Source of the DNA: Deltaproteobacteria bacterium
GTDB taxonomy: Bacteria; Myxococcota_A; UBA9160; UBA6930
DNA length: 64,000 nucleotides
Reading direction: 5' to 3'
Assembly (NCBI GenBank): GCA_016875395.1
Contig: VGRF01000010.1
Span: 65,065-129,064, forward strand
The position numbers and the translations under genes are program-made. Positions 3,333-62,950 of the stretch are shown here, piece by piece. Position 1 is the stretch's first letter. The number at the start of each line of letters is the position of its first letter. The notes beneath the pieces are model-generated. The model saw only the letters and a program-made list of their open reading frames with translations, had not been told where the DNA came from and did no database searches.

Positions 3333-3415
3333 GCCCGACGAGTCACTGCGAGAGGCACGCAAGCGAGCGAAGCGAGCGCGCAGCGAGCCGGAGGTGAGCG
3401 AAGTGAAACAAGCTG
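3320..3415 (+). repeat. Intergenic repeat family, copy R1 (ends 6 nt before the CoA-transferase ATG)
   Basis: Core GCAAGCGAGCGAAGCGAGCGCGCAGCGAGCCGGAGGTGAGCGAAGTGAAACAAG. Confidence 0.7.
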
Positions 3416-3420
3416 GCCCG

Positions 3421-4596: not shown

Positions 4597-4648
4597 AGCG
4601 AACGTTCGAACTTCGCTCGCCTGCGGCTCGCTGCGCGCTCCGCTTGCG
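4597..4648 (-). repeat. Intergenic repeat family, copy R2 (inverted, partial)
   Basis: The reverse complement reads GCGCAAGCGGAGCGCGCAGCGAGCCGCAGGCGAGCGAAGTTCGAACG. Confidence 0.65.
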
Positions 4649-18044: not shown

Positions 18045-18052
18045 CGCGCACC

Positions 18053-18167
18053 TGGGACGTACGTGCACCAAAGCGCGCACACGGGACGTACATGCACCAA
18101 AGCGCGCACTGGGGACGTACGTGCACGCTCCCAGGCGTCTCGATGTGCACGTACGTCCCCAGTGCGC
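18053..18167. repeat. 29-bp tandem repeat (about 2.5 units) ending in a 23-bp perfect hairpin; likely bidirectional terminator
   Basis: Repeat units start at 18053, 18082 and 18111 (GGGACGTACRTGCACCAAAGCGCGCAC). The stem GCGCACTGGGGACGTACGTGCAC at 18104-18126 pairs with 18145-18167. It lies between convergent genes. Confidence 0.75.
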
Positions 18168-18170
18168 GGG

Positions 18171-19514: not shown

Positions 19515-19612
19515 GCCTCGAAGTCGAACACTCCTCGGGGTAGGTCTGCATGGGCCGCAAGCGGAGCGCGCAGCGAGGCGAAGCCGAGCGAAGTAAACAA
19601 GGAGGGCCGGCG
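19515..19612 (+). repeat. Intergenic repeat family, copy R3 (20 nt before the phosphotransferase ATG)
   Basis: CCTCGAAGTCGAACACTCC...GGCCGCAAGCGGAGCGCGCAGCGAGGCGAAGCCGAGCGAAGTAAACAAGGAGG. Confidence 0.75.
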
Positions 19613-22183: not shown

Positions 22184-22222
22184 AGCTGTGAGCCCGACGC
22201 GCCGCTGAAGAAGTCAGAAAAA

Positions 22223-22322
22223 CCTCGATGACGAACGCTCCACCAAAGCAAGTCGGCCGAGACCGCAAGCGAAGCGCGCAGCGAGCCGGAGTCTTCGGAG
22301 GCGAGCGGAGTCAACAAGGAAA
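22223..22322 (+). repeat. Intergenic repeat family, copy R4 (full length)
   Basis: CCTCGATGACGAACGCTCCACCAAAGCAAGTCGGCCGAGACCGCAAGCGAAGCGCGCAGCGAGCCGGAG..GCGAGCGGAGTCAACAAGGA. Confidence 0.8.
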
Positions 22323-34688: not shown

Positions 34689-34697
34689 CTTCGCGCA

Positions 34698-34735
34698 CCT
34701 TGAAAATCGAAAGGCAGACTTTCTATTTTCAAGGT
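34698..34735. repeat. 38-bp AT-rich palindromic element, copy A
   Basis: CCTTGAAAATCGAAAGGCAGACTTTCTATTTTCAAGGT. 16-bp arms with one mismatch. Lies 12 nt upstream of the ATPase GTG. Confidence 0.9.
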
Positions 34736-34746
34736 AGGCTCGGCGC

Positions 34747-35934
34747 GTGATCGAACGCCCTCGCCTCCTGCGCGAGCTGCAGACGGCGCTGCGCCGCAGC
34801 CCCGTCGTGGCGCTCGTGGGCCCGCGCCAGTGCGGCAAGACGACGCTCGCGCGCACGCTCGTTCCGCCCGGCTCGCCTCGCTACTTCGACCTGGAGGATC
34901 CCGCGAGCCTCGCGAGCCTCGCCGAGCCGATTACCACGCTGCGTGAGCTGCGCGGCCTGGTCGTCGTCGACGAAGTGCAGCGGCGCCCCGACCTGTTTCC
35001 GGTGCTGCGCGTGCTGGCGGATCGACGCCCGCTCCGCGCGCGCTTTCTGATTCTCGGCAGCGCCTCGCCCGAGTTGTTGCGGCAATCCTCCGAGACACTC
35101 GCGGGACGCATCGAAGTGCTGACGATCGGAGGCTTCGATCTCTCGGAAGTGGGTGAGGACTCGCTCACGCGGCACTGGCGACGCGGCGGCTTCCCTCAGT
35201 CGTTCCTCGCGCGCAGCGAGGGCGACAGCTTCCAGTGGCGAAAGCAGTTCATTCAGACTTTTCTCGAGCGCGACCTCCCGCAGCTCGGCGTGCGCATCCC
35301 GCCGCAGGCGCTGCATCGCTTCTGGGCGATGCTCGCTCACTTCCACGGAAACGTGTGGAACGGCGCCGAGCTCGCACGCTCGCTCGCGTTGAGCCAGCCG
35401 ACCGTGCGCCAGTACCTCGACCTGATGACTGGCCTGTTCATGGTGCGGCAGCTCCTGCCTTGGCACGAGAACCTCGGCAAGCGCCAGGTGAAGGCGCCGA
35501 AGGTGTACGTGCGCGACGCCGGGCTCCTGCACCAACTGCTCGGCATCGCGAGCGACCGCGACCTGCAACGCCACCCCAAGCTCGGCGCGTCGTTCGAGGG
35601 CTACGCGATCGAGGAAGTGCTGCGGGCGGTGAGTCCTGCGCAAGCCTATTTCTGGGCCACGCATTCCGGCGCCGAGCTCGACTTGCTGCTCGTGAAGGGC
35701 GGGCGACGATTCGGCGTCGAGGTGAAGCACGCCGACGCGCCGCGCATCACGCCATCGATGCGCACCGCGATCGACGACCTCGGCCTCGAGCGCGTGACGG
35801 TGATCTATCCCGGCGAGCGCGCCTACGCCCTGTCAGACCGTGTGCACGTGCTCCCGGTCGGCGCTCTTGCCGACGGCGGCGCTACGCAGATCACGAAGTC
35901 CGCCAGGGCGCGTCAGGCGAAACGGAGACCTTGA
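34747..35934 (+). CDS. AAA+ ATPase with C-terminal DUF4143 domain (COG1373-type)
   Basis: Walker A LVGPRQCGKTTL and Walker B VVVDEVQ. The DUF4143-like region reads FLERDL...FWAMLAHFHGNVWNGAELARSL. GTG start. Confidence 0.8.
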   Translation: MIERPRLLRELQTALRRSPVVALVGPRQCGKTTLARTLVPPGSPRYFDLEDPASLASLAEPITTLRELRGLVVVDEVQRRPDLFPVLRVLADRRPLRARFLILGSASPELLRQSSETLAGRIEVLTIGGFDLSEVGEDSLTRHWRRGGFPQSFLARSEGDSFQWRKQFIQTFLERDLPQLGVRIPPQALHRFWAMLAHFHGNVWNGAELARSLALSQPTVRQYLDLMTGLFMVRQLLPWHENLGKRQVKAPKVYVRDAGLLHQLLGIASDRDLQRHPKLGASFEGYAIEEVLRAVSPAQAYFWATHSGAELDLLLVKGGRRFGVEVKHADAPRITPSMRTAIDDLGLERVTVIYPGERAYALSDRVHVLPVGALADGGATQITKSARARQAKRRP

Positions 35935-35966
35935 AAATCGAAAGGCAGACTTTCGATTTTCAAGGT
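35929..35966. repeat. 38-bp AT-rich palindromic element, copy B (perfect hairpin); contains the stop codons of both convergent genes
   Basis: CCTTGAAAATCGAAAGGCAGACTTTCGATTTTCAAGGT. The ATPase ends ...CCT TGA in the left arm and murI ends ...CCT TGA in the right arm on the other strand. Confidence 0.9.
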
Positions 35967-36805
35967 GCTGCCCGCTCGAAGCGCGGCGCCTCGGGCCAGA
36001 ACACTGCCGCGGTGCGCGAGACGTGCGCCGGATCGCCCGTCGTCAGCAGCCGCACTCCGGGCGCTCCGTTCGCGGCGTATTCGGGATGTCGCGCGAGGTA
36101 GTCCTCGAAGCTGTCCGCCACGACCTCGGGTTGCGAGAGGATGCGCACGCCGGCCGGCAGCTTCGCTGCGAACACGTCCTCGACCAGCGAGAAGTGCGTG
36201 CAGCCGAGAATCGCGCGATCGGGTTTGCCGCCACCGAGCTGCGCGGTCATCGCCTTCACCGCGTTCGCGACGATTGCCTCGAGCTCGGCGCGCGGCTGCG
36301 CGTTCTCGATCGCGGCGGCGAGCTCCGAGCACGGCTGCAGCACGATGCGCACGCGTGGACAGCGCTTGAAGATCTCCTCCGCGTACACGCCCGACGCGAT
36401 CGTGCGCGTGGTGCCGAACACCGCGATCACGTCGCGGTTGTTCTTCTGCGGATACTGCGGAGTCGTTACGGCCCACGGCGTCTGCGTCGCCGCCTCGACC
36501 GTCGGCGCCACGATGCCGACCACGTTGCGCCCCGCGTAGCCCGAGCCCGGCAGCCACTTGCGCTGCAGCGTGCGCAGCGCGACCGCCGTGGCGGTGTTGC
36601 AGCCGAGCACGACGAGCTTCGCGCCGAGCGCGAAGAGCCGCGCGACGCCGGCCTGCGTGAACGCGACGATCTCCGCCGACGCGCGATCGCCGTAGGGCGC
36701 GTTGGCGTGATCCCCGAGGTAGAGAAACGCCTGCTGCGGGAAGCGCGAAGAAAGCGCGCGCAGAACTGTTAGGCCGCCGAGCCCGGAGTCGAAGACGCCG
36801 ATCAT
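35960..36805 (-). CDS. murI: Glutamate racemase
   Basis: VFDSGLGGLTV, LVVLGCNTAT and ILGCTHF, with both catalytic Cys motifs. Confidence 0.9.
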   Translation of the reverse strand: MIGVFDSGLGGLTVLRALSSRFPQQAFLYLGDHANAPYGDRASAEIVAFTQAGVARLFALGAKLVVLGCNTATAVALRTLQRKWLPGSGYAGRNVVGIVAPTVEAATQTPWAVTTPQYPQKNNRDVIAVFGTTRTIASGVYAEEIFKRCPRVRIVLQPCSELAAAIENAQPRAELEAIVANAVKAMTAQLGGGKPDRAILGCTHFSLVEDVFAAKLPAGVRILSQPEVVADSFEDYLARHPEYAANGAPGVRLLTTGDPAHVSRTAAVFWPEAPRFERAAP

Positions 36806-40357: not shown

Positions 40358-41191
40358 TCACGAGCCGGTCGCGAGGAACTCGCCCACCACGCGCGCCAGC
40401 TCCGGGCCGTTGTCGAACATCACCGCATGCCCCGCGTTCGGGATCTGTGCGAGGCGCGCGTTCGCGATTACGCGCTCGGTCATCTTGCGCGCCACTTCTT
40501 CTGGGAGCATCGCGCTGCGTTCGCCGCGCGCGAGCAGCACGGGGCAGCGCAGCTTCGCGAGCGCGTCCCAGAGCGTGGCCTCGGTCTCGCGCAGCTCGTC
40601 CTCGGTGCCGAGCAGCTCGAGCAGCGCGGGGTCGAGCTTCGGCTCGAAGCGACCGTCGCGGCGCTGCACGAGGCTCGTGCGCGCGAGGCGATCCAGCGCG
40701 GCGCTCGCGGAGAGCGGATACGCGAGGCCGAGCAGCTTGCGGTACTCGGCGACGCTCTCGTAAGCGCGCGCCTGCTCGCTCACGTCGCTGGATGCGCGGC
40801 GCCAAGCATCGACCCCGAGCGCGGGGCCGCTGTCGATCATCACGAGGCGCGAGACGCGTTCGGGGTTCCGCGACGCGAAGAGCGCGGAGATGTTGCCGCC
40901 GAGCGAGTGGCCGACGAGCGCTGCGCGCTCGATGCCGAGCGCGTTGAAGATCTCGAGCAGATCGGCAGCGTGATCGAACAGGTGGTAGCGGCAGTCGAGG
41001 GACCAGCCGGAGTCGCCGTGCCCGCGCAGGTCGTGACGGATCGCTCGGTTGTCAGGGAGTGCGGCAGCGAGGTCGTCCCACACGAAGCGGTCGTTCGAGA
41101 AGCCGTGCACGAACACGACAGGTGAGGCGCCACCGCGCGAATCCGTCGCGGCCAGCTCGATTCCGTCGCGAGTGACGAGGCGCGCTTCCAT
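40358..41191 (-). CDS. Alpha/beta hydrolase, 8 nt downstream of the PKS
   Basis: Internal ATG (codon 127) of ORF 40358..41569. VVFVHGF, GHSLGG nucleophile elbow and a C-terminal GH. Confidence 0.8.
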   Translation of the reverse strand: MEARLVTRDGIELAATDSRGGASPVVFVHGFSNDRFVWDDLAAALPDNRAIRHDLRGHGDSGWSLDCRYHLFDHAADLLEIFNALGIERAALVGHSLGGNISALFASRNPERVSRLVMIDSGPALGVDAWRRASSDVSEQARAYESVAEYRKLLGLAYPLSASAALDRLARTSLVQRRDGRFEPKLDPALLELLGTEDELRETEATLWDALAKLRCPVLLARGERSAMLPEEVARKMTERVIANARLAQIPNAGHAVMFDNGPELARVVGEFLATGS

Positions 41192-41199
41192 GCGAACTC

Positions 41200-44100
41200 C
41201 TACGCGCCGCCGATCGAGGCGGCGAGGCGCTCGACCACGGCTTCGAGGTTGGGCTCGGCGAACAGCACCGCGGGCGGGATCTCGAGGCCCGCGGCTTCTT
41301 CGATGCGCGTGTGCAGCTCGACGCCCATCAGCGAGTCGAGGCCGAGCTCGCTGAGCGGGCGGTGCCAGTCGATGCGCGCGCGCGCTTCGGCGCTGAGGCG
41401 CAGCACGATCGCGAGCGCGGCGGCGACGATCTCGCGCAGCTTCGTGCGCCCGTCGGGCGAAGCGGCAGCGAGCTTCGAAGCGGCGCTCGCGTTCGCGGCG
41501 CCGAGCTCGCGCAGGATTGGGGCGCTCGCTGCGTTCCACGCGTTCGGCGCAGTGGCGTGCACTGCACACGCTGCGACGTCACTGCCTGCGATGCGCGAGA
41601 GCAGCGCGAAGGCCCCCGCGCTGGGCGCGACGCTCGCATCGAGCGCGAGGGCGGTCACCACATCACCGCGATCGCGGCGCGCGGCGGCGAAGTCCGCGAG
41701 CGGAATCTCGCCGAGCGTGAGCGAGGCGTTTGCGTCGCTCACGAGCCAGAGCGCTGCGCCCTGCTCCGCGGCGAACGAGGCGACCTCGCGAGCGCGCGGC
41801 GCGGCGTCGCCCGCGTCCGTTTCGTCGAGGACGAGCGCGACGAAGCGCAACGGCGCGCCGAGCTTGGCGCGCGCCGCCTCGAGGTCGTCGCTCGCACCGA
41901 GCCGCAACAACTCTCGCGGCGATTGCGCCGCAATCCAAGCGGCGAGCGCCGGAAAGCGCGCCTCGTCGCCGATCACCATCACGGCGCCGTTCGCGATGCG
42001 CTCGGACATCGAGAGCGGCACGAGCTGCGCGGACGCACGCTGCGCGAGCGAGATCACGACCTTCCCGGTGTGGCGCGCTTGCGCCATGAAGCGCACGGCG
42101 CGCCCGAGCTGTGCGACGGGGAAGACGCTGAGCGGGAATTCGAGCGCCGCGGGCGACGCAGCGATCGAGGCGCACAGCGATGCCGCGAGCTCGTCGGGCT
42201 TCGCGGCGAGTAGGCCCGCGGGATCGAGCGTGTGCAGCGAGACGTTGCGCGGTGCGCGCGAGAGCGTCGCGTGCGAGTCCCCGTTGCGAGCGAGCGCGAT
42301 GTAGCGGCCGCCGGGTGCGAGCGCGGCGAGCGGCGCGCCGTCGCCCGCGAGGTCGAGCGCGATGTCGAACGCGCCGGCCACTTCGGCGGGGCTGGATTCG
42401 GCGCGCGCTGCGACATTTCGGCCCGGCCGGAATGTCTCACCCGCGCGCGCGCCCAGCACGTGCGCTGCGCCGGCGCGCGCGAGGCTCTCGCGCTTGCGCG
42501 CGCTCCCGGCGCTCGCGGTGACCTCGGCGCCGAGCGCGCGCGCGAGCGCGACCGCCGCGTGCCCGATCGCGCCGCCCGCGGAGTGTACGAGCACGCGCTC
42601 GCCTTTGCTCACGCGCGCGAGGCCGTGCAGTGCGTAGTGCGCGACCGCGCGTGCGAGCGGGAGCGCGGCGGCGTTCTCGAAGCTGAGCGCTGCGGGCTTG
42701 CGCACGACGAGCGCGGCGTCCGTAACAACTCGCGAGGCGACGGACGCGCGCGCGAAGCCGAGGACCGCGTCGCCTGGCGCGAGCTCGCTCACGCCGGCGC
42801 CGACTTCGGAGACGATCCCCGCGACTTCGCAGCCAAGCCCGCGCAGCGCGTCGTCCTGTTCGAGGCCGAACGTGCGTAGAACGTCGAGGAACGAGAGGCC
42901 GGCGGCGTTCACCTCGATCGCGACTTGGCCGGGGCCGGGCGCGATCGGCTCGGACTCTCGCAACACCGCCGCAGAGAGGCGCTCGGGCGCTGCGGGCAGC
43001 GCGGTGAACTCGCGGCCGCGCGCGGGCTCGCGGCGCTCGCCGCTGGCGAGCGTGAGCGGCACGAGGCGCGGCGCGCTCGGAACGCCGTTGCGCGTCGCAC
43101 GCTGCGGTTCGTTCTCGCCCGATCCTTCGAGCTTTCGCCACGCGATCTCGTAGAGGAACGGGCCTGCCTCGGGCTTCGCGGGGCGCGCACGCCGCGCCAG
43201 TGCGATTCCTTCGAGCCGCGCGACGATCTCGCCACTGGCGCTGAGCAGCGCGACCTCCGCGCGCGCGCCGTCGAGCCGCGCGCTTGCGAAGATGTCGCCC
43301 GAGATGAACGCCGCACCGAGTGTGATGCGCTCGATCCCCGCAAGCTCGAAGCGTGTCGCGACGTCGCCGCGCGCGCGCTCGGCGAGGCGCGCGAGCAGCT
43401 GGAGACTCGCGTCGAGAACGGCGCCCGGAATCACCTCGTTGCTCGCGAGCGGCGCCGCGTGCGCAACGCGCGCGAGCGCTTCACCCGCGCCGAAGCTCGC
43501 CTCACGCAGCGCGCGGCGCTCCTTCGGTACGGACTCGCCCGCCGCGTCGAGCGCGGCGTAGAACGCATCGCGTGCTTCGGCGTTCGTGCAGCGCGCTTGC
43601 AGCGCCGCGAGGTCGAGCGCGCTCGCAGCGCTCTGTGCGCGCACGATGCGCGCGCTCGCGAGCGGCTCGAACGCTGCGTTCGAGAACGCGGCGCGCGTGG
43701 CGAAGCGCAGCGCAGCGCCATCCGCGGTTTCCCTCGCGGTGAGTTGCAGCGTCCGCGCGCCGCTCTTCGGAAGTGTGAGGGGCGCCGCGAGCGCGAAGTC
43801 CTCGACCCGAACGGCCGCATCGGGGAACGAGCGCTTCGCGACGCCGAGCGCGGTCGCGAGCAGCTCGCTCGGCGGAACGACGATCGCGCCGTCGCGCTTT
43901 GCCTCCGCGCCGAGCGCCTCGCGGAACAGGTCGATCTGCCAGAAGCGCTCGCCGCTCTCTGCGCTCTCGAGCTCGGTGGCGTTCGATCCGATCATGCCCG
44001 CGAACGGATGGGCGCTCTTGCGGCCGTCGACGCCGCGCTTGCCGCCGTACCAGTGCTCTTCGCGCTGGAACGGATACAGCGGCGTCGCAACGACTCGGCC

Positions 44101-46710
44101 CTGCGGGTGCACCGCGGCGAAGTCGATGCTCGCGCCGGCGCAGAAGAGCGCGCCGAGCGACGCGAGCATCTCGGCCTGATCGTCGGCCTCGCGGCGCAGC
44201 GACACCGCGACGTTCACGCGCTGCTTCGCGGTGCGGCCGATCTCTTCGAGCGAGAGCTTCAGCACAGGGTGCGGGCCGATCTCGAGGAACGTCGTGTGGC
44301 CCGCGGCGACTGCGGCGGCCGCCGCATCCGCGAAGCGCACGGGCTCGCGCAGGTTCTCGCCCCAATAACTCGCCGTGAGCGACTCACCCGCGACGACACC
44401 CGGCGTGACCGTGCTGAAGATCGGCACCGCGCTCGCGCTCGGCGCGACGCTCGCAACGCGCCGCGCGAGCTCGGGCGCGAGCGCATCCATGTGCGAGCCG
44501 TGCGAGGCGAACTCGACGCGCAGCTTGCGCGCGAAGACGCCGCGCGCCTCGAACGCGGCGACGACGGCCTCGATCGCGTCGATGTCGCCGGAGAGCACGG
44601 TCATGTTCGGGCTGTTCGCGCCAGCCACCGCAGCGCGGTTCCCGACGCGCGCGAGCTCTTCGTCGACTGCGCTCGCAGGCAGCGCGACGAGCGCCATCGC
44701 GCCGGGCGGCGCGAGCTCGCGCACCACCGCGCCGCGCGCGCACGCGATCAGCGCCGCGTCCGCGAGCGAGATCGCGCCCGCGATGTGCGCCGCGGCGATC
44801 TCGCCGCTCGAATGCCCGAGCACCGCGGCCGGCTTCACGCCCCAGTGCTCCCACTGCCGCGCGAGCGCGATCGCGATGCCGGTCAGGGCGGGCTGAAGCA
44901 CGTCGATGCGATCGAGGTCTTCGCCGCCGACTGCCCGCTCGAGCAGATCGCGGAGGGACCAGCGCACGTGCCTCCGCTGCTCCGCGTCCCACGCGTCGAT
45001 CGCCGCGGCGAACGCGGGCTCGCGCTCGAGGAGCGTCTTGCCCATGCCTGCCCAGTGCGTGCCGTGACCTGAGAACGCGAACACGACGCCCGTCGGTTTT
45101 GTGGCGACGCCGCTCGAAGTCGTTGGGGACGGCGCGCCCGAGAGGAAGCTCGCCAGCTCGCTCGCAAGCTCCGAGCGATCGCGCGCGACGACCGCCGCGC
45201 GGTTCGCGCGCAGCGTGCGGCGGCGTGCGTGCGTGTAGGCGACGTCGCGCAGCGCGGGGCCACCCCCGCGCGCCGCTTCTTCGCGAACGACATCGGCGAG
45301 CTCGACGAGCGCGCGATCGGTGTGCGCGCTGAGCGTCACGAGCCGCGGGCGCGCCGCCTCGTCTGCGAGCGCAGGCAGCGCAGGCGCTTCTTCGAGCACG
45401 ACGTGCGCGTTCGTGCCGCTGATGCCGAACGAGTTCACGCCCGCGAGTGCGCGCTCGGGATACGGCCAGGGCGCGAGGTCCTTCTGCACGCGGATCGGCA
45501 CCTTCTCCCACGGAATCTTCGTGCTCGGCGTCTCGAAGTTCGCCTGCGGCGGCAGCTCGCGGTGCTTCACGGCGAGCGTGGCCTTGATGAGTCCCGCGAC
45601 GCCCGACGCCGGTTCGGCGTGGCCGATGTTGCCCTTGACGGACGAGATCAGGAGCGGGCGCTCCTTCGCGCGGCCGGGGCCCATCACGTCCGCGAGCGCG
45701 GCGATCTCCACGGGATCGCCCACGACGGTGCCGGTGCCGTGCGTCTCGACGAAGTGGACGTCGCTCGGCGCGATGCCCGCGCGCTCGTAGGCGTCGCGAA
45801 TCGCTTGACCTTGGCCGAAGCGACCGGGCGCCATCATGTGCCCGCCGTCGCGGCCGTCGGCGCTGAAGCCGGTTCCCCTAATGACTGCGTGAATCGGGTC
45901 GCCGTTCGCGAGCGCGGCGGCGAGTGGCCGCAGCACGACGGCGCCGGCCCCTTCCGCGCGCACGAAGCCGTTCGCGCGGTCGTCGAACGCCTTGATCTTG
46001 CCGTCGGGCGCCATCATGCCCACGCGCGACAGCGCGATCATGCCTTCGGGCGTGATGAACACGTTCACGCCGCCAGCAATTGCGGTGTGCGTCTCGCCGC
46101 TCCACAGGCTCTGACACGCGAGGTGAACCGAGAGCAGCGAGGTAGAGCAGGCGGTGTCGATGAAGAAGCTCGGGCCGCGCGTGCCGAGCCAGAACGAGAT
46201 GCGCCCTGACAACACCGAGCCCGTGATGCCCGCAGCGCCCCACACGTCCATGTTGCGGCGGAAGCGATCCTCGCCGAGCACGGCGATGTGCTCGCGCGAG
46301 TAGTCCTCGTTCATGCGCCCGAAGATCACGGCCACGCGCTCGCCCATCAGCGCGTCGTGCGGAATGCCGGCGTCGTCGAGCGCGTCGAAGACGACCTCCA
46401 TCGCGTAGCGCTGGTGCGGCTCCATCGCGACGGCGTCGCGTGGCGAGAGGCCGAACACGAACGGATCGAACAGCTCGGGGTGATCGAGGAAGCCTGCGAG
46501 CTTCGACGAGATCTTGCCCGGCGTGCCCGGCCGCGGGTCGTAGATGTCGTCGATGTTGAAGCCGAGCTCGACGCGGTGCTGCGGCGGCTCGCTGATGCCA
46601 CTGCGCCCCTCGCGCAGCATGCGCCAGAACTGCTCGGGGCCGCGCGCGCCGCCGGGGAAGCGGAGCCCGATGCCGATGATCGCGATCGGCTCCGGAGCGC
46701 GCGGGATCAA
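41200..46710 (-). CDS. Single-module type I polyketide synthase: KS-AT-DH-ER-(KR-like remnant?)-ACP
   Basis: Part of ORF 41200..47106. KS: DTACSTSLL, HGTGT, GNIGHAEPASG. AT: GHSSGE, FASHG. DH: HPFAGM, LDASLQ. ER: an MDR fold with HSAGGAIGHAAV. ACP: LGLDSLMGVEL. The proposed TTG start at 46710 overlaps the upstream stop (TTGA). Confidence 0.9.
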   Translation of the reverse strand: MIPRAPEPIAIIGIGLRFPGGARGPEQFWRMLREGRSGISEPPQHRVELGFNIDDIYDPRPGTPGKISSKLAGFLDHPELFDPFVFGLSPRDAVAMEPHQRYAMEVVFDALDDAGIPHDALMGERVAVIFGRMNEDYSREHIAVLGEDRFRRNMDVWGAAGITGSVLSGRISFWLGTRGPSFFIDTACSTSLLSVHLACQSLWSGETHTAIAGGVNVFITPEGMIALSRVGMMAPDGKIKAFDDRANGFVRAEGAGAVVLRPLAAALANGDPIHAVIRGTGFSADGRDGGHMMAPGRFGQGQAIRDAYERAGIAPSDVHFVETHGTGTVVGDPVEIAALADVMGPGRAKERPLLISSVKGNIGHAEPASGVAGLIKATLAVKHRELPPQANFETPSTKIPWEKVPIRVQKDLAPWPYPERALAGVNSFGISGTNAHVVLEEAPALPALADEAARPRLVTLSAHTDRALVELADVVREEAARGGGPALRDVAYTHARRRTLRANRAAVVARDRSELASELASFLSGAPSPTTSSGVATKPTGVVFAFSGHGTHWAGMGKTLLEREPAFAAAIDAWDAEQRRHVRWSLRDLLERAVGGEDLDRIDVLQPALTGIAIALARQWEHWGVKPAAVLGHSSGEIAAAHIAGAISLADAALIACARGAVVRELAPPGAMALVALPASAVDEELARVGNRAAVAGANSPNMTVLSGDIDAIEAVVAAFEARGVFARKLRVEFASHGSHMDALAPELARRVASVAPSASAVPIFSTVTPGVVAGESLTASYWGENLREPVRFADAAAAAVAAGHTTFLEIGPHPVLKLSLEEIGRTAKQRVNVAVSLRREADDQAEMLASLGALFCAGASIDFAAVHPQGRVVATPLYPFQREEHWYGGKRGVDGRKSAHPFAGMIGSNATELESAESGERFWQIDLFREALGAEAKRDGAIVVPPSELLATALGVAKRSFPDAAVRVEDFALAAPLTLPKSGARTLQLTARETADGAALRFATRAAFSNAAFEPLASARIVRAQSAASALDLAALQARCTNAEARDAFYAALDAAGESVPKERRALREASFGAGEALARVAHAAPLASNEVIPGAVLDASLQLLARLAERARGDVATRFELAGIERITLGAAFISGDIFASARLDGARAEVALLSASGEIVARLEGIALARRARPAKPEAGPFLYEIAWRKLEGSGENEPQRATRNGVPSAPRLVPLTLASGERREPARGREFTALPAAPERLSAAVLRESEPIAPGPGQVAIEVNAAGLSFLDVLRTFGLEQDDALRGLGCEVAGIVSEVGAGVSELAPGDAVLGFARASVASRVVTDAALVVRKPAALSFENAAALPLARAVAHYALHGLARVSKGERVLVHSAGGAIGHAAVALARALGAEVTASAGSARKRESLARAGAAHVLGARAGETFRPGRNVAARAESSPAEVAGAFDIALDLAGDGAPLAALAPGGRYIALARNGDSHATLSRAPRNVSLHTLDPAGLLAAKPDELAASLCASIAASPAALEFPLSVFPVAQLGRAVRFMAQARHTGKVVISLAQRASAQLVPLSMSERIANGAVMVIGDEARFPALAAWIAAQSPRELLRLGASDDLEAARAKLGAPLRFVALVLDETDAGDAAPRAREVASFAAEQGAALWLVSDANASLTLGEIPLADFAAARRDRGDVVTALALDASVAPSAGAFALLSRIAGSDVAACAVHATAPNAWNAASAPILRELGAANASAASKLAAASPDGRTKLREIVAAALAIVLRLSAEARARIDWHRPLSELGLDSLMGVELHTRIEEAAGLEIPPAVLFAEPNLEAVVERLAASIGGA
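42413..42438. repeat. 26-nt exact copy (inverted) of the tetR-promoter palindrome, inside the PKS ER-domain coding sequence
   Basis: ACATTTCGGCCCGGCCGGAATGTCTC is the reverse complement of 47341-47366. It encodes ..GETFRPGRNV.. in the PKS. Confidence 0.85.
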
Positions 46711-47135
46711 ACGCGCTCCCAGATCAGGTAGCCCGTGGGTGCCTGCGCGTTGATCGTGAGCGGCGGCGTCTCGAGGATCAGGCGGTCGCCGTCGATCTTG
46801 AAGATGCGTTCTTGGTCGACCCCGACCCACTGCGGCAGCGACGCGACTTCGACGTGGTGAACGACGCGGTTGCCCTTCGTCTCGAAGCGCCCGCAGTAGG
46901 CGTTGAACTGATCGAAGTTCACGTTCTTCGCGGTGTCGGCGAGGTCGCTCGACTGCGGCTTCAAGCGATCCGCGCCCATGAACGCCGCCGACATGAAGCC
47001 CTGCGCGTTGTAGAAGAGGTAGCCGCGCGGCCCCTTCCCGAACGGGTACGAGACGTCGCCGTTCGGCATGCGCAGCTCGAACGAGAGCAGCTTCCAGGAG
47101 CCGCAAAGCGCGTGGCGGCCAGCGTCGTCGCTCAT
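46707..47135 (-). CDS. Lipocalin-like domain protein, first gene of the PKS operon
   Basis: 142-aa ORF. GSWKLLSFELRMPNGDVSYPFG..PRGYLFYNAQGFMS is typical of the small lipocalin-like beta-barrel family. Confidence 0.55.
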   Translation of the reverse strand: MSDDAGRHALCGSWKLLSFELRMPNGDVSYPFGKGPRGYLFYNAQGFMSAAFMGADRLKPQSSDLADTAKNVNFDQFNAYCGRFETKGNRVVHHVEVASLPQWVGVDQERIFKIDGDRLILETPPLTINAQAPTGYLIWERV

Positions 47136-47340
47136 CCGAACTTCCTCGATGGCTTTAGAGAGAGGTGGTCGCGAGGAGTCTCGGGGGTGGGCTCACTGCG
47201 CGCGGCGAAACAGCGTTCGCGCCAAACCAAGGACGCGGATGATGGGCGGATTCACGCGCGCTGTCTGTGCGGCGCGCCCGAAACCGCTGACTCGAAGCCC
47301 GCGCGCGTCTAATGCGGGGCGAGTCGATTGGCCCCCACGC

Positions 47341-47366
47341 GAGACATTCCGGCCGGGCCGAAATGT
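47341..47366. promoter_or_regulatory. Imperfect palindrome 42-67 nt upstream of the tetR ATG; candidate TetR operator
   Basis: GAGACATTCCGGCC|GGGCCGAAATGT(GTC). It sits in the divergent intergenic region between the PKS operon and tetR. Confidence 0.35.
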
Positions 47367-47407
47367 GTCACCTGGGTAAAGTGCGCCGACCTCGGGAGGG
47401 GGGACGC

Positions 47408-48043
47408 ATGGCGGGTGCGGGCGAGTTCTCTCAGCGGCGCGCCGGCAAGGCGGCGACGCAGGAAGCGATCCTCGTGGCGGCGACCCAGCTCTTCATGGAG
47501 CGCGGCTACGAGGGCACCACGGTCGCCGACGTCGCGGAGCGAGCGGGCGTCTCGCGCGCGACGGTGTTCTGGCACTTCAGCGACAAGGGCGGGCTGTTCC
47601 GCGAGGCATTCGTGCGGCTGTTCGCGCCGTTCCGAGACTCGATGGCGAACGATTTCCACGATCTCCCGGCCCCAAAGCGCCTGCACGAGCAGCTCGGCGC
47701 CGCGGAGCTGTTCGCACGCCAGCACGGCGCCGAGCTCGCGGCGTTCCTGCGCTGGGCCTTCGAGTCGCCCGAGCACCGCGAGGGCGTGATCACGGCACTG
47801 CTCGACCTCAATCAGCGCTACCAGGGCGTGCTGATCGAGACGGTCGCCGAGATCGCCGGCCCCGAGCGCGACGCGCGCGCCCTGGGCGGCGCGCTTTGGC
47901 TCGCGGTCGATGCGAACTTCTTCCTCTCGATCTTCGACAAGAGCGACCGCGGCTTCGAACAACGCGCCGCCGCCGCCCGCGCACTCGCGGACCTGATCAT
48001 CGCGGACGCGGAGACGAGCCGAGGGGCGGCAGCAGCGAAGTAG
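47408..48043 (+). CDS. TetR/AcrR-family regulator divergent from the PKS operon
   Basis: Internal ATG (codon 33) of ORF 47312..48043, preceded by GGGAGGGGGG. HTH TTVADVAERAGVSRATVFWHFSDK. Confidence 0.85.
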   Translation: MAGAGEFSQRRAGKAATQEAILVAATQLFMERGYEGTTVADVAERAGVSRATVFWHFSDKGGLFREAFVRLFAPFRDSMANDFHDLPAPKRLHEQLGAAELFARQHGAELAAFLRWAFESPEHREGVITALLDLNQRYQGVLIETVAEIAGPERDARALGGALWLAVDANFFLSIFDKSDRGFEQRAAAARALADLIIADAETSRGAAAAK

Positions 48044-48057
48044 GCCCCGCGGGCCCC

Positions 48058-48117
48058 GGGGACGTTCCGCAAGCAAGTAAAGAAACCCGCAGCTTTACTT
48101 TCTTGCGGAACGTCCCC
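48058..48117. terminator. 25-bp-stem hairpin between convergent tetR and nudix genes
   Basis: GGGGACGTTCCGCAAGCAAGTAAAG - 10 nt - CTTTACTTTCTTGCGGAACGTCCCC, with one mismatch. Confidence 0.6.
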
Positions 48118-49267: not shown

Positions 49268-49344
49268 GGCGGCGGACCTTAAGGCACGCATCCCGCCCGA
49301 ACGAGCGCAGCGAATGGCGCGGTGCGGGGCTAGGGTCGCGGACG

Positions 49345-49431
49345 CGGAGCCTAGGGGTGGGTCGCGAGAGCGATCCTGAGAAAACACCCTCGGAACCTGA
49401 TCTCGTTGATACGAGCGGAGGGAAGGCTCAG
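49345..49431 (+). promoter_or_regulatory. TPP (THI-box) riboswitch upstream of thiC
   Basis: GGGGTG...CCTGAGA..ACCC..GAACCTGATC....GATAC...CGGAGGGA in canonical order. A P1 pairing GAGCC/GGCTC is possible. Confidence 0.85.
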
Positions 49432-49477
49432 CGGCCGAGGCCGCGCGTCTCCTTCCGCCAACACGAAGGAGTGCGCA

Positions 49478-55245: not shown

Positions 55246-56628
55246 ATGCCCTCGCCTCTCACGGCATGGGATGGCGCGCTTGCGCGCCTCTCGGCCGAAA
55301 CGCCTCCGCTCGCCCTGAAAGCGTGGATCCTGCCCCTCGGGATTCATGCTGACGGGGACACCCTGGTGCTCACGGCGCCGACGAGCTTTCACGCCGAGCG
55401 GGTGCGGTCGCGGTTCTCGAGCGCGATCGAGATGCACCTCGCCCAAGAAGGCGTCGCAATTCCGCTGCGAATCGAGGTGGGGAGCGAGGCTGCGCCCGTG
55501 CGGGAGCCCGCTGCCGGCGCGGTCGGTCTACGTCCGAACGCTCTTTCCGAAGCGGCGCCTTCGCGCGCGCTGATGGTCCGCGTCGAGGCGCCGCTGGCTC
55601 CGGCCGCGCAGCTCGCGCTGCCGCACACGTTCGACACGTTCGTGGTCGGGCCCGGCAACGCACTCGCCCGCGAGGCGTCCTTCGCGCTCGCGCGCGGCCG
55701 CACACTCGGCGCCGGCACGCTCTTCCTCGCGGGCCCGCCTGGCATCGGGAAGTCGCACCTCGCGCGCGCGGTCGTGCACGAGGCGCGCGCGAACGGCTCC
55801 GAGCGCGCGCTCTACGCCTCCGCCGAGTCGTTCACGAGCGAGCTGATGTCGGCGATTCGCGCGAACGAGACGCCGGCGTTTCGTCGCCGCTATCGACGCG
55901 AGTGCGACCTGCTCGTGATCGAAGACGTGCAGTTCTTTGCGGGCAAGAACGCGACGCAGCTCGAGCTCTTCCACACCGTCGAGCACCTGCGCCTCGTCGG
56001 CGCGCGCGTCGTGCTCACCGCCGATCGCCTGCCGCGCGACATCGCGCGCTTCGACGCGCGGCTCGCCTCGCAGCTCGCGAGCGGTCTCGTCGCCGAGATG
56101 GATCCGCCCGACCGCGAGCTGCGCCGCGACATTCTGCGCGACCGCGCCGCGCGCGGCGGCTTCCGCATTCCCGACGATTGCCTCGAGCTGCTCGCCGACA
56201 CGGTGCACGGCAGCGTGCGCGACCTCGAGGGCGTGCTCATGCAGCTCGTCGCGAGCTCGGCGCTGCTCGGGCGCAAGATCGATCGCGCGCTCGCGGAGAG
56301 CGCGCTGCGCAAAGTCGCCGGCCCGAGCGGCGCCGCGCACTCGATCGATGAAGTGATCGACTGCGTCGCGCAGTTCTCCGGCCTGCGCCGCGCCGACCTC
56401 GCGAGCCGCTCACGCCGCCGCGCAACGCTGCGGCCGCGCCAGCTCGCGATGTACCTGTGCCGCCAGCTCACCGACGCCAGCCTCAGCGAGATCGGCCGCG
56501 CGCTCGGCCGCGACCACCCCGCCGTCGCCAACGCCCTGCGCGCCATCGAACGCGCCCTCCTCGAACGCGCCCCCCTCCGCTACCAGGTCGAAGAGCTCTC
56601 CGCGCGCCTCCAACGACGCCGCAGCTAG
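55246..56628 (+). CDS. dnaA: Chromosomal replication initiator protein DnaA
   Basis: Walker A GPPGIGKSHL, Walker B LLVIEDVQF, sensor/box VII LTADR, and domain IV RQLAMYLCRQLTDASLSEIGRALGRDHPAV. Confidence 0.95.
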   Translation: MPSPLTAWDGALARLSAETPPLALKAWILPLGIHADGDTLVLTAPTSFHAERVRSRFSSAIEMHLAQEGVAIPLRIEVGSEAAPVREPAAGAVGLRPNALSEAAPSRALMVRVEAPLAPAAQLALPHTFDTFVVGPGNALAREASFALARGRTLGAGTLFLAGPPGIGKSHLARAVVHEARANGSERALYASAESFTSELMSAIRANETPAFRRRYRRECDLLVIEDVQFFAGKNATQLELFHTVEHLRLVGARVVLTADRLPRDIARFDARLASQLASGLVAEMDPPDRELRRDILRDRAARGGFRIPDDCLELLADTVHGSVRDLEGVLMQLVASSALLGRKIDRALAESALRKVAGPSGAAHSIDEVIDCVAQFSGLRRADLASRSRRRATLRPRQLAMYLCRQLTDASLSEIGRALGRDHPAVANALRAIERALLERAPLRYQVEELSARLQRRRS

Positions 56629-56690
56629 CGCGAGCAGGGTCTCTTCTCCGCCTGACTCGCCGACGCGCACTCCCCTCAAAGCGGGAGGAT

Positions 56691-56793
56691 CCTCGAAGTC
56701 GAACGCTCCACCGGAGCAGGTCGGCCGAGGCCGCAAGCAAAGCGCGCAGCAAACCGCGGAGTCCTCGACGCGGTTTGCGAAGTCAACAAGGAA
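56691..56793 (+). repeat. Intergenic repeat family, copy R5 (full length)
   Basis: CCTCGAAGTCGAACGCTCCACCGGAGCAGGTCGGCCGAGGCCGCAAGCAAAGCGCGCAGCAAACCGCGGAG..TTTGCGAAGTCAACAAGGA. About 85% identical to R4 by eye. Confidence 0.8.
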
Positions 56794-56819
56794 AAGGGGA
56801 GGCGCTGTCTCCTGACCGC

Positions 56820-59375: not shown

Positions 59376-61100
59376 CTACTTCCCGTCCGCGATCCCCACC
59401 CACTCGCGCAGCTGCGCGGGGTCGGTGCGGTGCAGGAAATCGCCCGCCGGGAGCCCACTCCCGTGCTCGCGGATGGCGCGCGCGAGACCTACCAGCGCGG
59501 GCACCATCTGCTCCTCCGCGATGCGCGCGTACAGCGTGTGCGCGAGGCGCTCGCCGTTGCGCGCGCCGCCGACCAGGATCACGTGGTCGTTCTTGCCGTA
59601 GCCGAAGATGCCGATCTCGGCGGACGGCGGGCGGGCGCAGTTGTTGGGGCAGCCCGTCATGCGGATCACGATGTCGACGTCGCCGAGGCCCGCGGCTTCG
59701 ACCTCGTCGATGTAGTGCGGGAGGATGTTCTCGGCGTCAGTCATCGCGAGCCCGCAGGTCGGCTTCGCGGGGCAAGCCATCGCGTTCGCGCGCACGCGCG
59801 ACACCGCCTTGCGCGCGCCGTGCGCGTCGAGGATGCGCTCGACGCTCGCGGCGTCCGGCGCATCGCACAGGATCAGATCCTGCTGCGGCGTCAGCACGAC
59901 GGCGCAGCCGAGCTTCTCCACCGCTTCGCGCACGGCCTTGCGCTGCGCGCCCTTCAGGCGCCCGTTCTCGACGGAGACGCCGTAATAACCGCGTCCGCCG
60001 CGCTGCGCGTGCCAGCCGAGGTGAAGCTGCATGTCGGCGATGCGCACGGGCGCTGCGTCCTCGAGCGCGAGGCCGAAGCGCTCGCGCAGCTCCTTCTTCA
60101 CCGCGTCGACGCCGAGCCGGCGCAGCGTGTACTTCCAGCGCGCCTGCCTGCGGTCGCCGCGCTCGCCGTTCTCCTTCTGGATCAGCACGATTGCGCGGCA
60201 AGCGGCGACCACGTCGCTTCGCGCGATGCGCCCCAGGTGCTCGCCCAGCAGCGGCGCGGTCTTCGGGTTGTTGTGCGTCATCCCGAGCCCGCCGCCGGTG
60301 TAAAAGTCCCAGCGCTCGCCGCGCTCGTCCGCGGGCACGAGCCCGACGTCCTGCGTGCGCACGTCCACCGAGCCGTCGCGCGGGTGCGCGATCCCGATCT
60401 TGAACTTGCGCGGCAGGTACTGCGCGCCGTAGATCGGCTCGTCCGTGTTCACGGGCGCTTGGTTCCGACCCTCGGCGTCAGACACGAAGATCTGGAAGTA
60501 CGACGAGCTGCGCGGCGTCAGCTCCGCGGCGATGTCGTGCGCGAGCGCGAGGCCGCCGGGCGCGCAGCTCGGATCCAGCGCGTCGATCGGCGACGCCATC
60601 ACGTTGCGATTCACGTCGCCGCAGGCGGAGACGGTCGCGCCGTCGCGGTAGTGGCGGTTCAGGTGCCGCATCAGCGGCGCGAGCTTCGGTCCGTAGACGC
60701 GGTGGTACTGGATCGCCTGGCGCGAGGTGAGGCGCAGCGTCCCGTCCGCGAACTGATCGGCTGCATCGTCGAGCGCGAGCCACTGCTTCGGAGAGAGCTT
60801 GCCGCCCGCCGGATTCTTGATCCGCACCATGAAGAAGTAGTCGTGCGTCTTGCGCCCGCGCTCGCCGCGGCCCTGCTGCTTATAGATCCCGAAGAACTTG
60901 GACAGCTCCTTGGCCGTTCCCGAGATCGACTGCTCCTCGCCCGAATCGAGCTTCTGGACCTCGTCGAGGAAGCTGTGCGTCGCCTTCCCGTCCGCGACGA
61001 AGAACAGCCCGCGGCTCTCGACCTTGATGCGCTCGTTGTCGGACATCTCCGCGAGCGACGCGGTCTTCAGCGAGGCGACCGGCCTGGGCTCTGCGGACAT
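59376..61100 (-). CDS. Sulfite/nitrite reductase hemoprotein (sirohaem-4Fe4S)
   Basis: Internal ATG (codon 53) of ORF 59376..61256. RLTSRQAIQYH repeat halves, and the C-terminal cluster ACPAKPTCGLA...TGCPNNCARP. Confidence 0.85.
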   Translation of the reverse strand: MSAEPRPVASLKTASLAEMSDNERIKVESRGLFFVADGKATHSFLDEVQKLDSGEEQSISGTAKELSKFFGIYKQQGRGERGRKTHDYFFMVRIKNPAGGKLSPKQWLALDDAADQFADGTLRLTSRQAIQYHRVYGPKLAPLMRHLNRHYRDGATVSACGDVNRNVMASPIDALDPSCAPGGLALAHDIAAELTPRSSSYFQIFVSDAEGRNQAPVNTDEPIYGAQYLPRKFKIGIAHPRDGSVDVRTQDVGLVPADERGERWDFYTGGGLGMTHNNPKTAPLLGEHLGRIARSDVVAACRAIVLIQKENGERGDRRQARWKYTLRRLGVDAVKKELRERFGLALEDAAPVRIADMQLHLGWHAQRGGRGYYGVSVENGRLKGAQRKAVREAVEKLGCAVVLTPQQDLILCDAPDAASVERILDAHGARKAVSRVRANAMACPAKPTCGLAMTDAENILPHYIDEVEAAGLGDVDIVIRMTGCPNNCARPPSAEIGIFGYGKNDHVILVGGARNGERLAHTLYARIAEEQMVPALVGLARAIREHGSGLPAGDFLHRTDPAQLREWVGIADGK

Positions 61101-61135
61101 CGAGGGGTCTCCGGGGAAGCGGCGCACCCTATCGG

Positions 61136-62950
61136 ATGCCCCTAGGGCGAGCCACGAATCCCGACCTGCGCGCCTGTGAATCGCGGGCGAGGAGACGCGG
61201 TCCCGCGTGCTGGCGCCTCGATCGGCACGAAAGCGGAGGCAGAAGCCGCCTTCCATCCGGGGTTGAAGGGTTCATTTGCACGCAAGTTGCGGTCAAGAGG
61301 GCTTGCGGGGATGCCGATTCAAACCGCGACGTTGACTCGACACCGATCAGCCGCACGCCGCTCATCGCGTGGCTCCGCCAGAGCCTCGCGCGCGATCTCG
61401 CCGTGCTCGTGGTCGGGCTGTGCCTGGTCGCCGCAATCGTCACCGCGCTGACGTCGCGTGAGGTGCTAGACACCGCAGTTCGCCACGGCGTTCGTGCGGA
61501 GCTCGAGCGGGAGTTCGATCGTGCGCAAACCGCACTGCAGCTCTCGCGAAGACAAGAGTTCGAGGGAGCGAACGTAATCGCGCGCGACGATCTGCTGCTC
61601 GAATGCCTCGCACGCGGCAGCGAAGGGCACAGCGCCTTGCGGGCGCGGCTAGAGGTGCTGTTCGCGCGCGAGCCCGAAGCCATCGGCTTTGCGCTGGCTC
61701 GGCCCGGCGCGCGCGAGCCCTTCGTCATGGTCGGCCAGTGGGGCCGCTCGCACTGGCAGTTCGCGCTCGCACAGCGCACCTCCGCGGGCAGCTCCGTTGC
61801 CGCGACAGAGGTCGAAGGCGCTCCGATCGACCTCGCGCGGATCGCGATTGCGACGCGCGACGGGTCCGTGCTGCTGTGGATCGCGTTCGATCCGCTGCGC
61901 GCACTCGACGTGCTCTACGACGAGGGCCAGATCGACGCCGCGATCACGGGCGCGCGAGGAGACAAGCTCGCCGGCTCCCTCGCCGCGTCTGCGCTCACGC
62001 GCGAGATCGGCTTCCGCGACGCCAAAGGATCCGATGGCGCACCGCTGCTCGTGCTGCGTCGCGAGCTCGCCGGAACGCCGTGGCAGCTCGTCATCGCGCG
62101 TCCGCTGCCCGCGCTTCCGGCAAACACGCTGCTCAGCCTCGTGCTCGGGAGCGTTCTCACGGCGGTCGTCGCCGGGGGCCTCGCGTTCGGCGTCGGCGCG
62201 TGGCGCCTGCGCCCGCTGCTCGATCTCGCCGAGGGCGCGGGCCGGCTCGCCGGCGGCGACTTCAACGTGCGCATGCCCGTGAGCGAAGCGCACGACGAGG
62301 TGCAGACGCTCGCGCGCGCGTTCAACGACATGGCCGCGCAGCTCGAGGGCCAGCGGCGTGCGCTCGAGGAGCGCAACCGGGATTTGTTACGGGCGAACGA
62401 GGTACTCGAGCAGCTCTCGATCACCGACGGACTCACCCACCTCCACAATCACCGCCACTTCCACGACCAGTTCTCGCGCGAGGTGAAGCGCGCCGACCGC
62501 AGCGAGCAGCCGCTTTGCCTGCTGCTCGTCGACATCGACGACTTCAAGCTGCTGAACGACCGCTACGGCCACGCTGCGGGCGACCGCGTGCTCGCGGCGG
62601 CCGCTCAGCTGATCAACCTGCAAATCCGCGAGTCGGACTACGTCGCCCGCTACGGCGGAGAGGAGTTCGCGCTGCTCCTGCCACACACGCCCCTCGAAGG
62701 CGCCACCGCGCTCGGCGAGAAGATTCGGACCGCGATGTCGGAGCACGAGTTCCCGATCGAGGAGCGCGACATCGTCGTGCGCGTGACGGTCTCCGTGGGT
62801 GTCGCGCTCTACTCCACGACCACCGACGAGACCTTCGATGCCGCCGATCGCGCGCTGTACGAGGCGAAGGCCGCGGGCAAGGACTGCGTCTTCACGGCGG
62901 CGCCGCTCGATCGGACGCCGGCTCCATCTCCGCTGAAGCGCCGCCGCTGA
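61136..62950 (+). CDS. Membrane sensor diguanylate cyclase (periplasmic domain-HAMP-GGDEF)
   Basis: Two TM helices, HAMP (LAGGDFNVRMP...EVQTLARAFNDMA), I-site RESD and active site GGEEF. The start is uncertain; ATG 61136 lies only 36 nt from the divergent reductase start. Confidence 0.8.
   Translation: MPLGRATNPDLRACESRARRRGPACWRLDRHESGGRSRLPSGVEGFICTQVAVKRACGDADSNRDVDSTPISRTPLIAWLRQSLARDLAVLVVGLCLVAAIVTALTSREVLDTAVRHGVRAELEREFDRAQTALQLSRRQEFEGANVIARDDLLLECLARGSEGHSALRARLEVLFAREPEAIGFALARPGAREPFVMVGQWGRSHWQFALAQRTSAGSSVAATEVEGAPIDLARIAIATRDGSVLLWIAFDPLRALDVLYDEGQIDAAITGARGDKLAGSLAASALTREIGFRDAKGSDGAPLLVLRRELAGTPWQLVIARPLPALPANTLLSLVLGSVLTAVVAGGLAFGVGAWRLRPLLDLAEGAGRLAGGDFNVRMPVSEAHDEVQTLARAFNDMAAQLEGQRRALEERNRDLLRANEVLEQLSITDGLTHLHNHRHFHDQFSREVKRADRSEQPLCLLLVDIDDFKLLNDRYGHAAGDRVLAAAAQLINLQIRESDYVARYGGEEFALLLPHTPLEGATALGEKIRTAMSEHEFPIEERDIVVRVTVSVGVALYSTTTDETFDAADRALYEAKAAGKDCVFTAAPLDRTPAPSPLKRRR

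Follow-up and report, generated by a model that had tools for sequence, protein, structure and literature searches.

The 64-kb stretch of contig VGRF01000010.1 analysed here (hereafter the window) carries a 26-nt sequence in two exact, oppositely oriented copies, one upstream of a tetR gene and the other inside a type I polyketide synthase (PKS) gene. How might this identity have arisen? We consider it very probable that the 26-mer corresponds to the stretch common to two copies of a dispersed 33-bp palindrome that resembles the repetitive extragenic palindromic (REP) sequences, namely their 'long palindromic singlet' type, and that populates the genome of a freshwater lineage of Myxococcota. 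The 26-nt identity is due to shared descent from the master sequence of this repeat family, and not to a regulatory link between the two sites. Some in-frame copies of the family also resemble the Rickettsia palindromic elements (RPEs).

The sequence GAGACATTCCGGCCGGGCCGAAATGT occurs exactly twice in the window, at 47341-47366 on the forward strand and at 42413-42438 on the reverse strand, and no further site with up to three mismatches was found in these 64 kb. An earlier annotation made from the sequence alone (the first-pass annotation) had reported this exact inverted repeat, had described it as an imperfect palindrome and had argued that it cannot be due to chance; all three claims were borne out. 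The 26-mer was matched in none of 100 dinucleotide-preserving shuffles of the window, and both copies are present in JGI and Logan contigs that were assembled independently from five different samples, which rules out an assembly artefact. The identity between the copies ends exactly at 26 nt on either side. Within the 26-mer, a 23-nt core, ACATTCCGGCC-G-GGCCGAAATGT, is palindromic except for one mismatched pair, and the symmetry reaches beyond this core, to about 29-33 nt. As 33-nt units, the two copies are GCGAGACATTCCGGCCGGGCCGAAATGTGTCAC (copy A, 47339..47371, forward strand), which contains the 26-mer and lies in the intergenic region between a lipocalin gene and tetR, and, on the coding strand, GTGAGACATTCCGGCCGGGCCGAAATGTCGCAG (copy B, 42408..42440, reverse strand), which lies in frame in the enoylreductase (ER) domain of the PKS. 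Copy A is located 37-69 nt 5' of the tetR start codon (ATG at 47408), with its 26-mer part 42-67 nt from the ATG, exactly where the first-pass annotation had placed it. Each copy differs from the family consensus at three positions, the centre base not counted, and each folds, with internal mismatches, as a DNA hairpin (-7.3 kcal/mol for copy A and -8.8 kcal/mol for copy B).

The palindrome family and its genomic setting

We scanned public metagenome contigs for the core CATTYNGGCCNGGCCNRAATG (pattern CATTYNGGCC-N-GGCCNRAATG). The scan, which was not exhaustive in that the known contig Ga0194121_10000805 was not among the matches, returned 83 stretches, many of them on large Lake Tanganyika contigs of ~70% GC. 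Contigs of at least 68% GC accounted for 33 distinct core-pattern loci (loci are designated below by L and a number), 9 of which are near-consensus; with both window copies counted, 9 distinct loci have no more than three mismatches to the 33-nt consensus, GTGAGACATTTCGGCC-S-GGCCGAAATGTCTCAC, which was derived from the aligned copies. The sequences flanking the copies are unrelated to each other, and the unit is therefore about 31-33 nt long. The consensus folds as a perfect DNA hairpin (-16.7 kcal/mol, z = -9), more stable than that of either window copy, and further subfamilies have other outer arms that are still self-complementary. The majority of the copies seen are singlets, and two loci carry inverted doublets (L080, units at 9031 and 9062; L124, units at 9477 and 9511), in each of which the second core repeats the first as its reverse complement and the units are spaced 31-34 nt apart. 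When the copies were placed in their open reading frame (ORF) context after GC3 filtering, most of them fell outside ORFs or at the extreme 5' edge of one, and three were clearly genic, namely those in the PKS ER domain, in an Lhr helicase and in an AMP ligase. There are also differences in presence or absence between lineages: the intergenic copy of the window sits where other lineages have a different sequence.

Could gene conversion or template switching simply have copied one site to the other over the 4.9 kb that separate them? The exact 26-nt identity within one locus would fit such a local event, and so would the closest relative of the locus (L007), whose two copies are likewise similar to each other, at 28 of 33 positions. 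However, the exact 26-mer recurs at two more loci, L124 and L140, and the L140 copy has only two mismatches per 33 nt to each of the window copies, which differ from each other at four. Because the window copies are closer to L140 than to each other, they are independent near-master copies rather than copies of one another, and we regard local copying as highly improbable.

The homologues of the locus come from sources named as metagenome-assembled genomes (MAGs) of Myxococcota. The tetranucleotide composition of the family loci on sufficiently long Lake Tanganyika stretches correlates with that of the window at 0.86-0.95, compared with 0.49-0.79 for unrelated high-GC loci; for comparison, the window's own 10-kb pieces correlate at 0.84-0.96. 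Three large contigs with near-consensus copies share two other repeat families with the window (those of ~115 nt and ~29 nt described below), and the sample that yielded the contig identical to the window also yielded four such contigs. The density was about 7 core hits in the ~454 kb of contigs from one sample, in line with the 2 in the 64 kb of the window. We also attempted to extend the window by means of its terminal gene (59376-61256, reverse strand), and no record of its protein was found elsewhere.

Four other kinds of element were considered for the palindrome and dropped: CRISPR repeats, as there is no array; an intrinsic terminator, as there is no T-run; integron attC sites, for which the unit is too short; and DNA uptake sequences, which do not arise as 27-33-nt indels. 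The core pattern also recurs in other organisms, as apparently independent palindromic families (L012, L031 and L037, on contig CAWACV010000001.1; L069, L073, L075, L078, L082 and L143; L121, L128 and L136). A gammaproteobacterial MAG has four core-pattern sites; contigs from tropical soil carry palindromes of the form GGCATTCCGGCC-S-GGCCGGAATGGCCGGAAT; and lake contigs of 55% GC carry ACTGCATTTAGGCC-S-GGCCTAAATGCAGT, the arms of which resemble those of the L007 variant described below.

The region upstream of tetR and its orthologues

The tetR gene (47408..48043, forward strand) encodes a TetR/AcrR-family regulator of 211 aa (Pfam TetR_N, E = 2e-19). The first-pass annotation had placed copy A in a divergent intergenic region between the PKS gene and tetR. 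This was a mistake: a gene for a 142-aa Lipocalin_5 protein (46707..47135, reverse strand; gene call, Pfam), the first gene of a lipocalin-PKS-hydrolase operon, lies between them, and the true divergent partner of tetR is this lipocalin gene, not the PKS gene. The same layout of operon and tetR is kept in eight further loci, with TetR identities from 96% down to 81%.

Does the TetR protein bind the palindrome both upstream of its own gene and within the PKS gene, where it could act as a roadblock or by looping, as the first-pass annotation had suggested in proposing a second, intragenic operator? The palindrome has the size and symmetry of an operator and a position 42-67 nt upstream of tetR in its favour, and the sister lineage L007 has palindromes at both sites too. 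We read the eight other orthologous loci (L007, L008, L009, L010, L150, L151, L152 and L153). The helix-turn-helix region of TetR is invariant across the eight orthologues aligned, and its operator should therefore be conserved too. Nevertheless, between the lipocalin gene and tetR the palindrome is absent from six of the eight loci (L008, L009, L010, L151, L152 and L153), despite their invariant helix-turn-helix; L150 has at most a doubtful relic, GGCAGGCCTGGCCGG; four loci are devoid of the insert in the ER domain; and only the closest relative, L007, likewise has palindromes at both sites. In L007, moreover, the N-terminal 72 residues of TetR, which comprise the DNA-binding domain, are 100% identical to those encoded in the window, whereas at either site the palindrome departs from its counterpart in the window at 10-11 of 33 positions. 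Co-evolution of the regulator with its operator was rejected on the same grounds, the DNA-binding domain being identical while the palindromes differ.

The palindrome is not limited to possible targets of the regulator either. Identical or nearly identical copies occur at unrelated loci, and a Pfam scan of 10 ORFs neighbouring eight other copies revealed no TetR; it identified two short-chain dehydrogenases (SDR), a TPR/transglutaminase protein, an HI0933 flavoprotein, MsrA, a Crp-family regulator, a methyltransferase, an AcrB-type transporter, an AMP ligase and a FAD-binding protein. Other copies lie inside the Lhr helicase and the AMP ligase. To judge from its neighbours across the family, the palindrome is thus a dispersed repeat unrelated to TetR genes, an outcome that the first-pass annotation had itself set against its proposal, and we give very little credence to a dual TetR operator.

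A different sequence is conserved upstream of all the orthologous tetR genes. This block, located at 47286..47329 (forward strand) in the window, consists of GCTGACTC, a 17-nt spacer, a TAGACT-like hexamer and, after 13-14 nt, GAGTCTGA (GAGTC(TGA)). In the window it has undergone partial erosion (GTCTAATG in place of GTCTAGAC, and GAGTCGA), although L007 has it intact. It may represent a -35/-10-like pair in which the -10 region forms an inverted repeat with GAGTCT. A strict scan of 47000-47500 for sigma-70 promoters and terminators gave no hits, and the promoter reading of the block is therefore one that we infer. On the basis of its conservation, the block appears to be a better candidate for the tetR promoter/operator than the palindrome, and TetR most likely acts there and not at the palindrome.

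Copy A is probably located within the tetR leader: should the conserved block be the tetR promoter, the transcript would carry copy A as a hairpin in that leader. The RNA fold of 47320-47425 was no more stable than those of shuffled sequences (z = +0.5), and the hairpin of copy A leaves the ribosome-binding site uncovered. The folding predictions thus give no sign of a dedicated leader structure beyond the hairpin of the repeat itself. No Rfam family was matched at either copy of the palindrome, the sole match in the window being a riboswitch described below.

In-frame copies and lineage-specific arms

Copy B lies in the ER domain of the PKS (an MDR-type enoylreductase; residues ~1259-1553; 42052..42936, reverse strand; Pfam ADH_N, ADH_zinc_N and ADH_zinc_N_2), the best solved relatives of which are the ER domains of mycocerosic acid synthase (MAS-like PKS), CurK and SpnB. 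Its translation, (A)GETFRPGRNVA, spans residues ~1423-1434 and falls in the ADH_zinc_N portion of the domain, in agreement with the GETFRPGRNV that had been read in the PKS frame by the first-pass annotation. In both protein and nucleotide alignments, the PKS genes of the window and L007 are longer by 27 nt (9 codons), exactly at copy B, than those of L008, L009, L010 and L150, and the ER domain of the MAS-like PKS (PDB 5bp4) has nine gap positions there. The slightly greater loop length that the first-pass annotation had suspected is therefore real, with nine additional codons relative to four orthologues and to solved ER structures, and its second proposal, that a small palindromic mobile element inserted in frame, gains support from this lineage-specific gain of 27 nt and from the in-frame copies in two other proteins.

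According to the alignment, the insertion site lies in the nucleotide-binding subdomain, between the HV-x-x-SR strand and the VDVVL strand. We take this to be the place where a peripheral helix normally sits in the MDR fold. The empty-site sequence (CCGCGCGTCGCAG in L008, CCGAACGCAGCC in L150) is similar to the palindrome's right arm, which hints at microhomology at the insertion target. Copy B is followed, in the coding direction, by 39 nt that are hypervariable (AARAESSPAEVAGA; 42369..42407, reverse strand): only 16 of 39 positions are identical between the window and L007, compared with 83-85% in the flanking parts of the ER domain and 86% over the genes as a whole. This stretch shows a weak similarity to family units, the score of which was reached by 12 of 500 shuffles for the window and by 25 of 500 for L007, while the native sequence of L008 shows none. 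The similarity is suggestive only, but the 39-nt stretch could be the decayed second unit of a doublet, and the original ER insert may, equally tentatively, have been a doublet that replaced the helix-coding segment.

Two further copies are read in frame by unrelated enzymes. In L092, a copy inside an Lhr helicase is read in the same frame, as AAGETFRPGQND, and lies in the middle of a 17-residue excess over the Lhr of M. smegmatis (5v9x, 7lhl). In L077, a copy inside an acyl/aryl-AMP ligase is read as LATFRPGQNVH, where no clear length difference relative to solved homologues was seen. The peptide xTFRPGxN is thus common to the PKS ER domain (AGETFRPGRNVA), Lhr and the AMP ligase. Of the three reading frames through the palindrome, one has a TGA, and the frame that is used gives nearly the same peptide in either orientation, because the element is a palindrome.

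These observations suggest how the two copies in the window could have come about. Copies would arrive by the family's own spreading, either through a single-strand transposase of the REP-associated tyrosine transposase (RAYT) type or by recombination between copies. The ER copy would survive because the frame of the palindrome is open (xETFRPGRNVx) and because the insertion hits a surface loop or helix. Both copies would then be tolerated passengers with at most incidental effects, for example through a hairpin formed in the tetR leader or the PKS mRNA.

The comparison of the window with L007 complicates this scheme. In both, the element occupies the same two sites, with the same net length of the ER domain, and its arms differ: GAGACATTCC...AAATGT in the window versus GCTGCATTC...AAATGCAGC in L007, each variant being common to both copies of its genome. 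Accordingly, the copies are identical at 29 of 33 positions within the window and at 28 of 33 within L007, versus 22-23 of 33 between the two genomes. Either the family has been homogenised to a lineage-specific master by gene conversion, as has long been suggested for REPs (cited in PMC3337134), or refilling of the sites took place independently. We put forward, as a possibility that we hold only tentatively, that this is an RPE-like, coding-competent REP family of free-living Myxococcota which both donates an xTFRPGxN loop to unrelated enzymes and undergoes concerted evolution, its orthologous copies being overwritten by the master of each lineage.

Alternatively, the palindrome might not be mobile at all, but might be recognised by another abundant protein that binds DNA or RNA (a global regulator, a nucleoid protein or an RNA-stability hairpin) and be kept by selection at many sites, the two in the window among them. 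The arm changes are symmetric and preserve the palindromy (GAGAC/GTCTC, GAGTC/GACTC, GCTGC/GCAGC), copies within one genome share a variant, and REPs are known to bind IHF, gyrase and RAYT (PMC3479197, PMC3337134), all of which speak in favour of this alternative. However, binding sites do not normally appear as 27-33-nt indels in coding sequence, and presence/absence polymorphism at orthologous sites together with inverted doublets are marks of a spreading repeat. We therefore judge this alternative unlikely; it also overlaps with the REP-like explanation, because REPs have often been co-opted.

Several points count against a dispersed REP-like repeat in this genome. The different arms of L007 at both orthologous sites are not predicted by a single insertion followed by decay. 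No overlap was found between the window and the metagenome loci that carry other copies, and those copies are assigned to the same or a sister genome on the strength of their composition and of repeats in common with the window rather than through physical linkage. How many copies a genome contains is likewise only extrapolated from the ~454 kb of contigs from one sample. When representative genomes were scanned with CATTYNGGCCNGGCCNRAATG, 56 stretches were found over many phyla and none in Myxococcota. This number is close to a rough chance estimate of ~35 (596 Gb, uniform composition); the representative genomes thus apparently do not include the source species, so that the scan offered no test of dispersal and no reference genome confirms the family. 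No target-site duplication or direct repeats were seen in the flanks of the aligned copies, and no RAYT was found in six-frame translations of all loci compared, which cover a small part of the genome and were searched with a crude HUH...RFWE...NP motif regular expression.

Neighbouring features and comparison with known systems

The PKS gene (41200..46710, reverse strand; gene call in L001, Pfam) encodes 1836 aa in the order KS-AT-DH-ER-ACP, with ~200 aa between ER and ACP (residues ~1560-1760) that match no Pfam family. No ketoreductase (KR) could be recognised, and a reducing module with DH and ER but without a detectable KR is odd. The operon ends with an alpha/beta-hydrolase gene (40358..41191, reverse strand; gene call, Pfam). 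The exact locus is known from Lake Tanganyika and other freshwater metagenomes, and the exact TetR protein was found on 23 contigs. A convergent NUDIX gene lies 3' of tetR, and between the two is a long near-perfect hairpin, GGGGACGTTCCGCAAGCAAGTAAAG...CTTTACTTTCTTGCGGAACGTCCCC (48058-48117), which has no T-run; at the same place, L008 has a 31-nt perfect palindrome of the GGCC-N-GGCC type, GCGCACATCTGGGCCAGGCCCAGATGTGCGC (10647-10677). Further downstream, an ordinary thiamine pyrophosphate (TPP) riboswitch precedes thiC (49343-49440; Rfam RF00059, 60 bits). The dnaA gene is located at ~55246-56628 (L001 gene calls), about 7.8 kb downstream of tetR, which probably places the window near the chromosomal origin of replication.

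The window also contains other repeats. A dispersed repeat of ~115 nt, with the core GTCGGCCGAGGCCGCAAGCGAAGCGCGCAGC and the end ...GCGAAGTCAACAAGGAAAA, is present at 22196-22322 and 56689-56795, and in part at 3374-3418, 19564-19608 and 4610-4648; it is found likewise in the Lake Tanganyika loci L104, L111 and L140, and could be a MITE (a miniature transposable element with inverted repeats) or a conserved leader. A third repeat family is represented at 18045-18168 by three tandem units of ~29 nt (GGGACGTACGTGCACCAAAGCGCGCAC) followed by an inverted copy, and arrays related to this unit occur in L067, L077 and L134. In a region that otherwise has 70% GC, a pair of 41-nt AT-rich hairpins, ACCTTGAAAATCGAAAG-gcagac-TTTC[T/G]ATTTTCAAGGT (34695-34735 and 35928-35968), brackets a single gene of ~1.2 kb. 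The hairpin has no copy in the other loci compared, and the arrangement suggests either a cassette that was inserted or two binding sites for a protein.

What do these findings mean for the locus and beyond it? They remove the tempting model of an intragenic TetR operator for the PKS gene, and they illustrate that an exact repeat common to a promoter region and a gene can be just two copies of selfish or structural DNA. They document a REP-like family from freshwater Myxococcota that are uncultured; no description of such repeats in this group was found in the literature searched. They also show, in a clean case from nature, that a catalytic PKS domain and a helicase can tolerate a 33-bp palindrome in frame; such in-frame sites mark permissive loops, which are possibly usable for engineering. 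The parallel arm changes in two sister lineages offer a compact test case for the homogeneity of REP families.

How does the palindrome compare with known systems? Like the operators of TetR-family regulators such as tetO and QacR IR1, copy A is a palindrome in the 20-30 bp class located 5' of a tetR-family gene. Unlike these operators, it is not retained alongside the regulator and is apparently dispersed through the genome away from TetR genes, and a separate conserved inverted repeat sits at the promoter-like block of this locus. A resemblance to MITEs (Correia, ERIC, Chunjie; PMC10969869) lies in a small, hairpin-forming, dispersed element that looks non-autonomous and is occasionally intragenic in frame. 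MITEs are typically 100-500 bp long (PMC10969869), however, and the present element is far shorter, the whole unit being one 33-nt palindrome without terminal inverted repeats around an internal region and without a target-site duplication.

The closest likeness is to the REPs, REPINs and bacterial interspersed mosaic elements (BIMEs) that are known from Enterobacteria and Pseudomonas, among them the 'long palindromic REP singlets' described in P. fluorescens SBW25 (PMC3337134, PMC3116915, PMC3479197); REP singlets, doublets and long palindromic singlets have all been described (PMC3337134). The family shares with REPs an imperfect dispersed palindrome of ~33 nt, within the 20-40 nt of a hairpin-forming REP, a mainly extragenic location, lineage variants and some inverted doublets, and its perfect copies have the form a-core-a' of the SBW25 long palindromic singlets. 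REPs carry an unpaired 5' guide tetranucleotide at the foot of the hairpin (GTAG in E. coli, PMC3479197), whereas the GTGAG at the start of the present consensus pairs with CTCAC at its other end, and the flanks contain no conserved unpaired tetranucleotide. The family further differs from classic REPs in its host, a Myxococcota MAG, in its several in-frame genic copies and in that no RAYT was found. Classic REPs occur at a density of 1 per 4-8 kb, in contrast to the moderate apparent density of about 1 per 30-65 kb here.

With the RPEs, which are in-frame palindromic elements that have been reviewed (PMC10969869), the family has in common the insertion in frame into unrelated housekeeping or metabolic genes, where it adds a conserved peptide and leaves the ORF intact; the extra length was seen for the ER domain (+9 aa) and for Lhr (+17 aa versus 5v9x). 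RPEs are ~100-150 bp long, add 30-50 residues and belong to obligate intracellular Rickettsia (PMC10969869), and are recognised by homology within RPE families, whereas the present element has 33 bp (9-11 residues), is found in a free-living Myxococcota bacterium of 70% GC and is extragenic in most of its copies. The repeat behaves like an RPE without being one.

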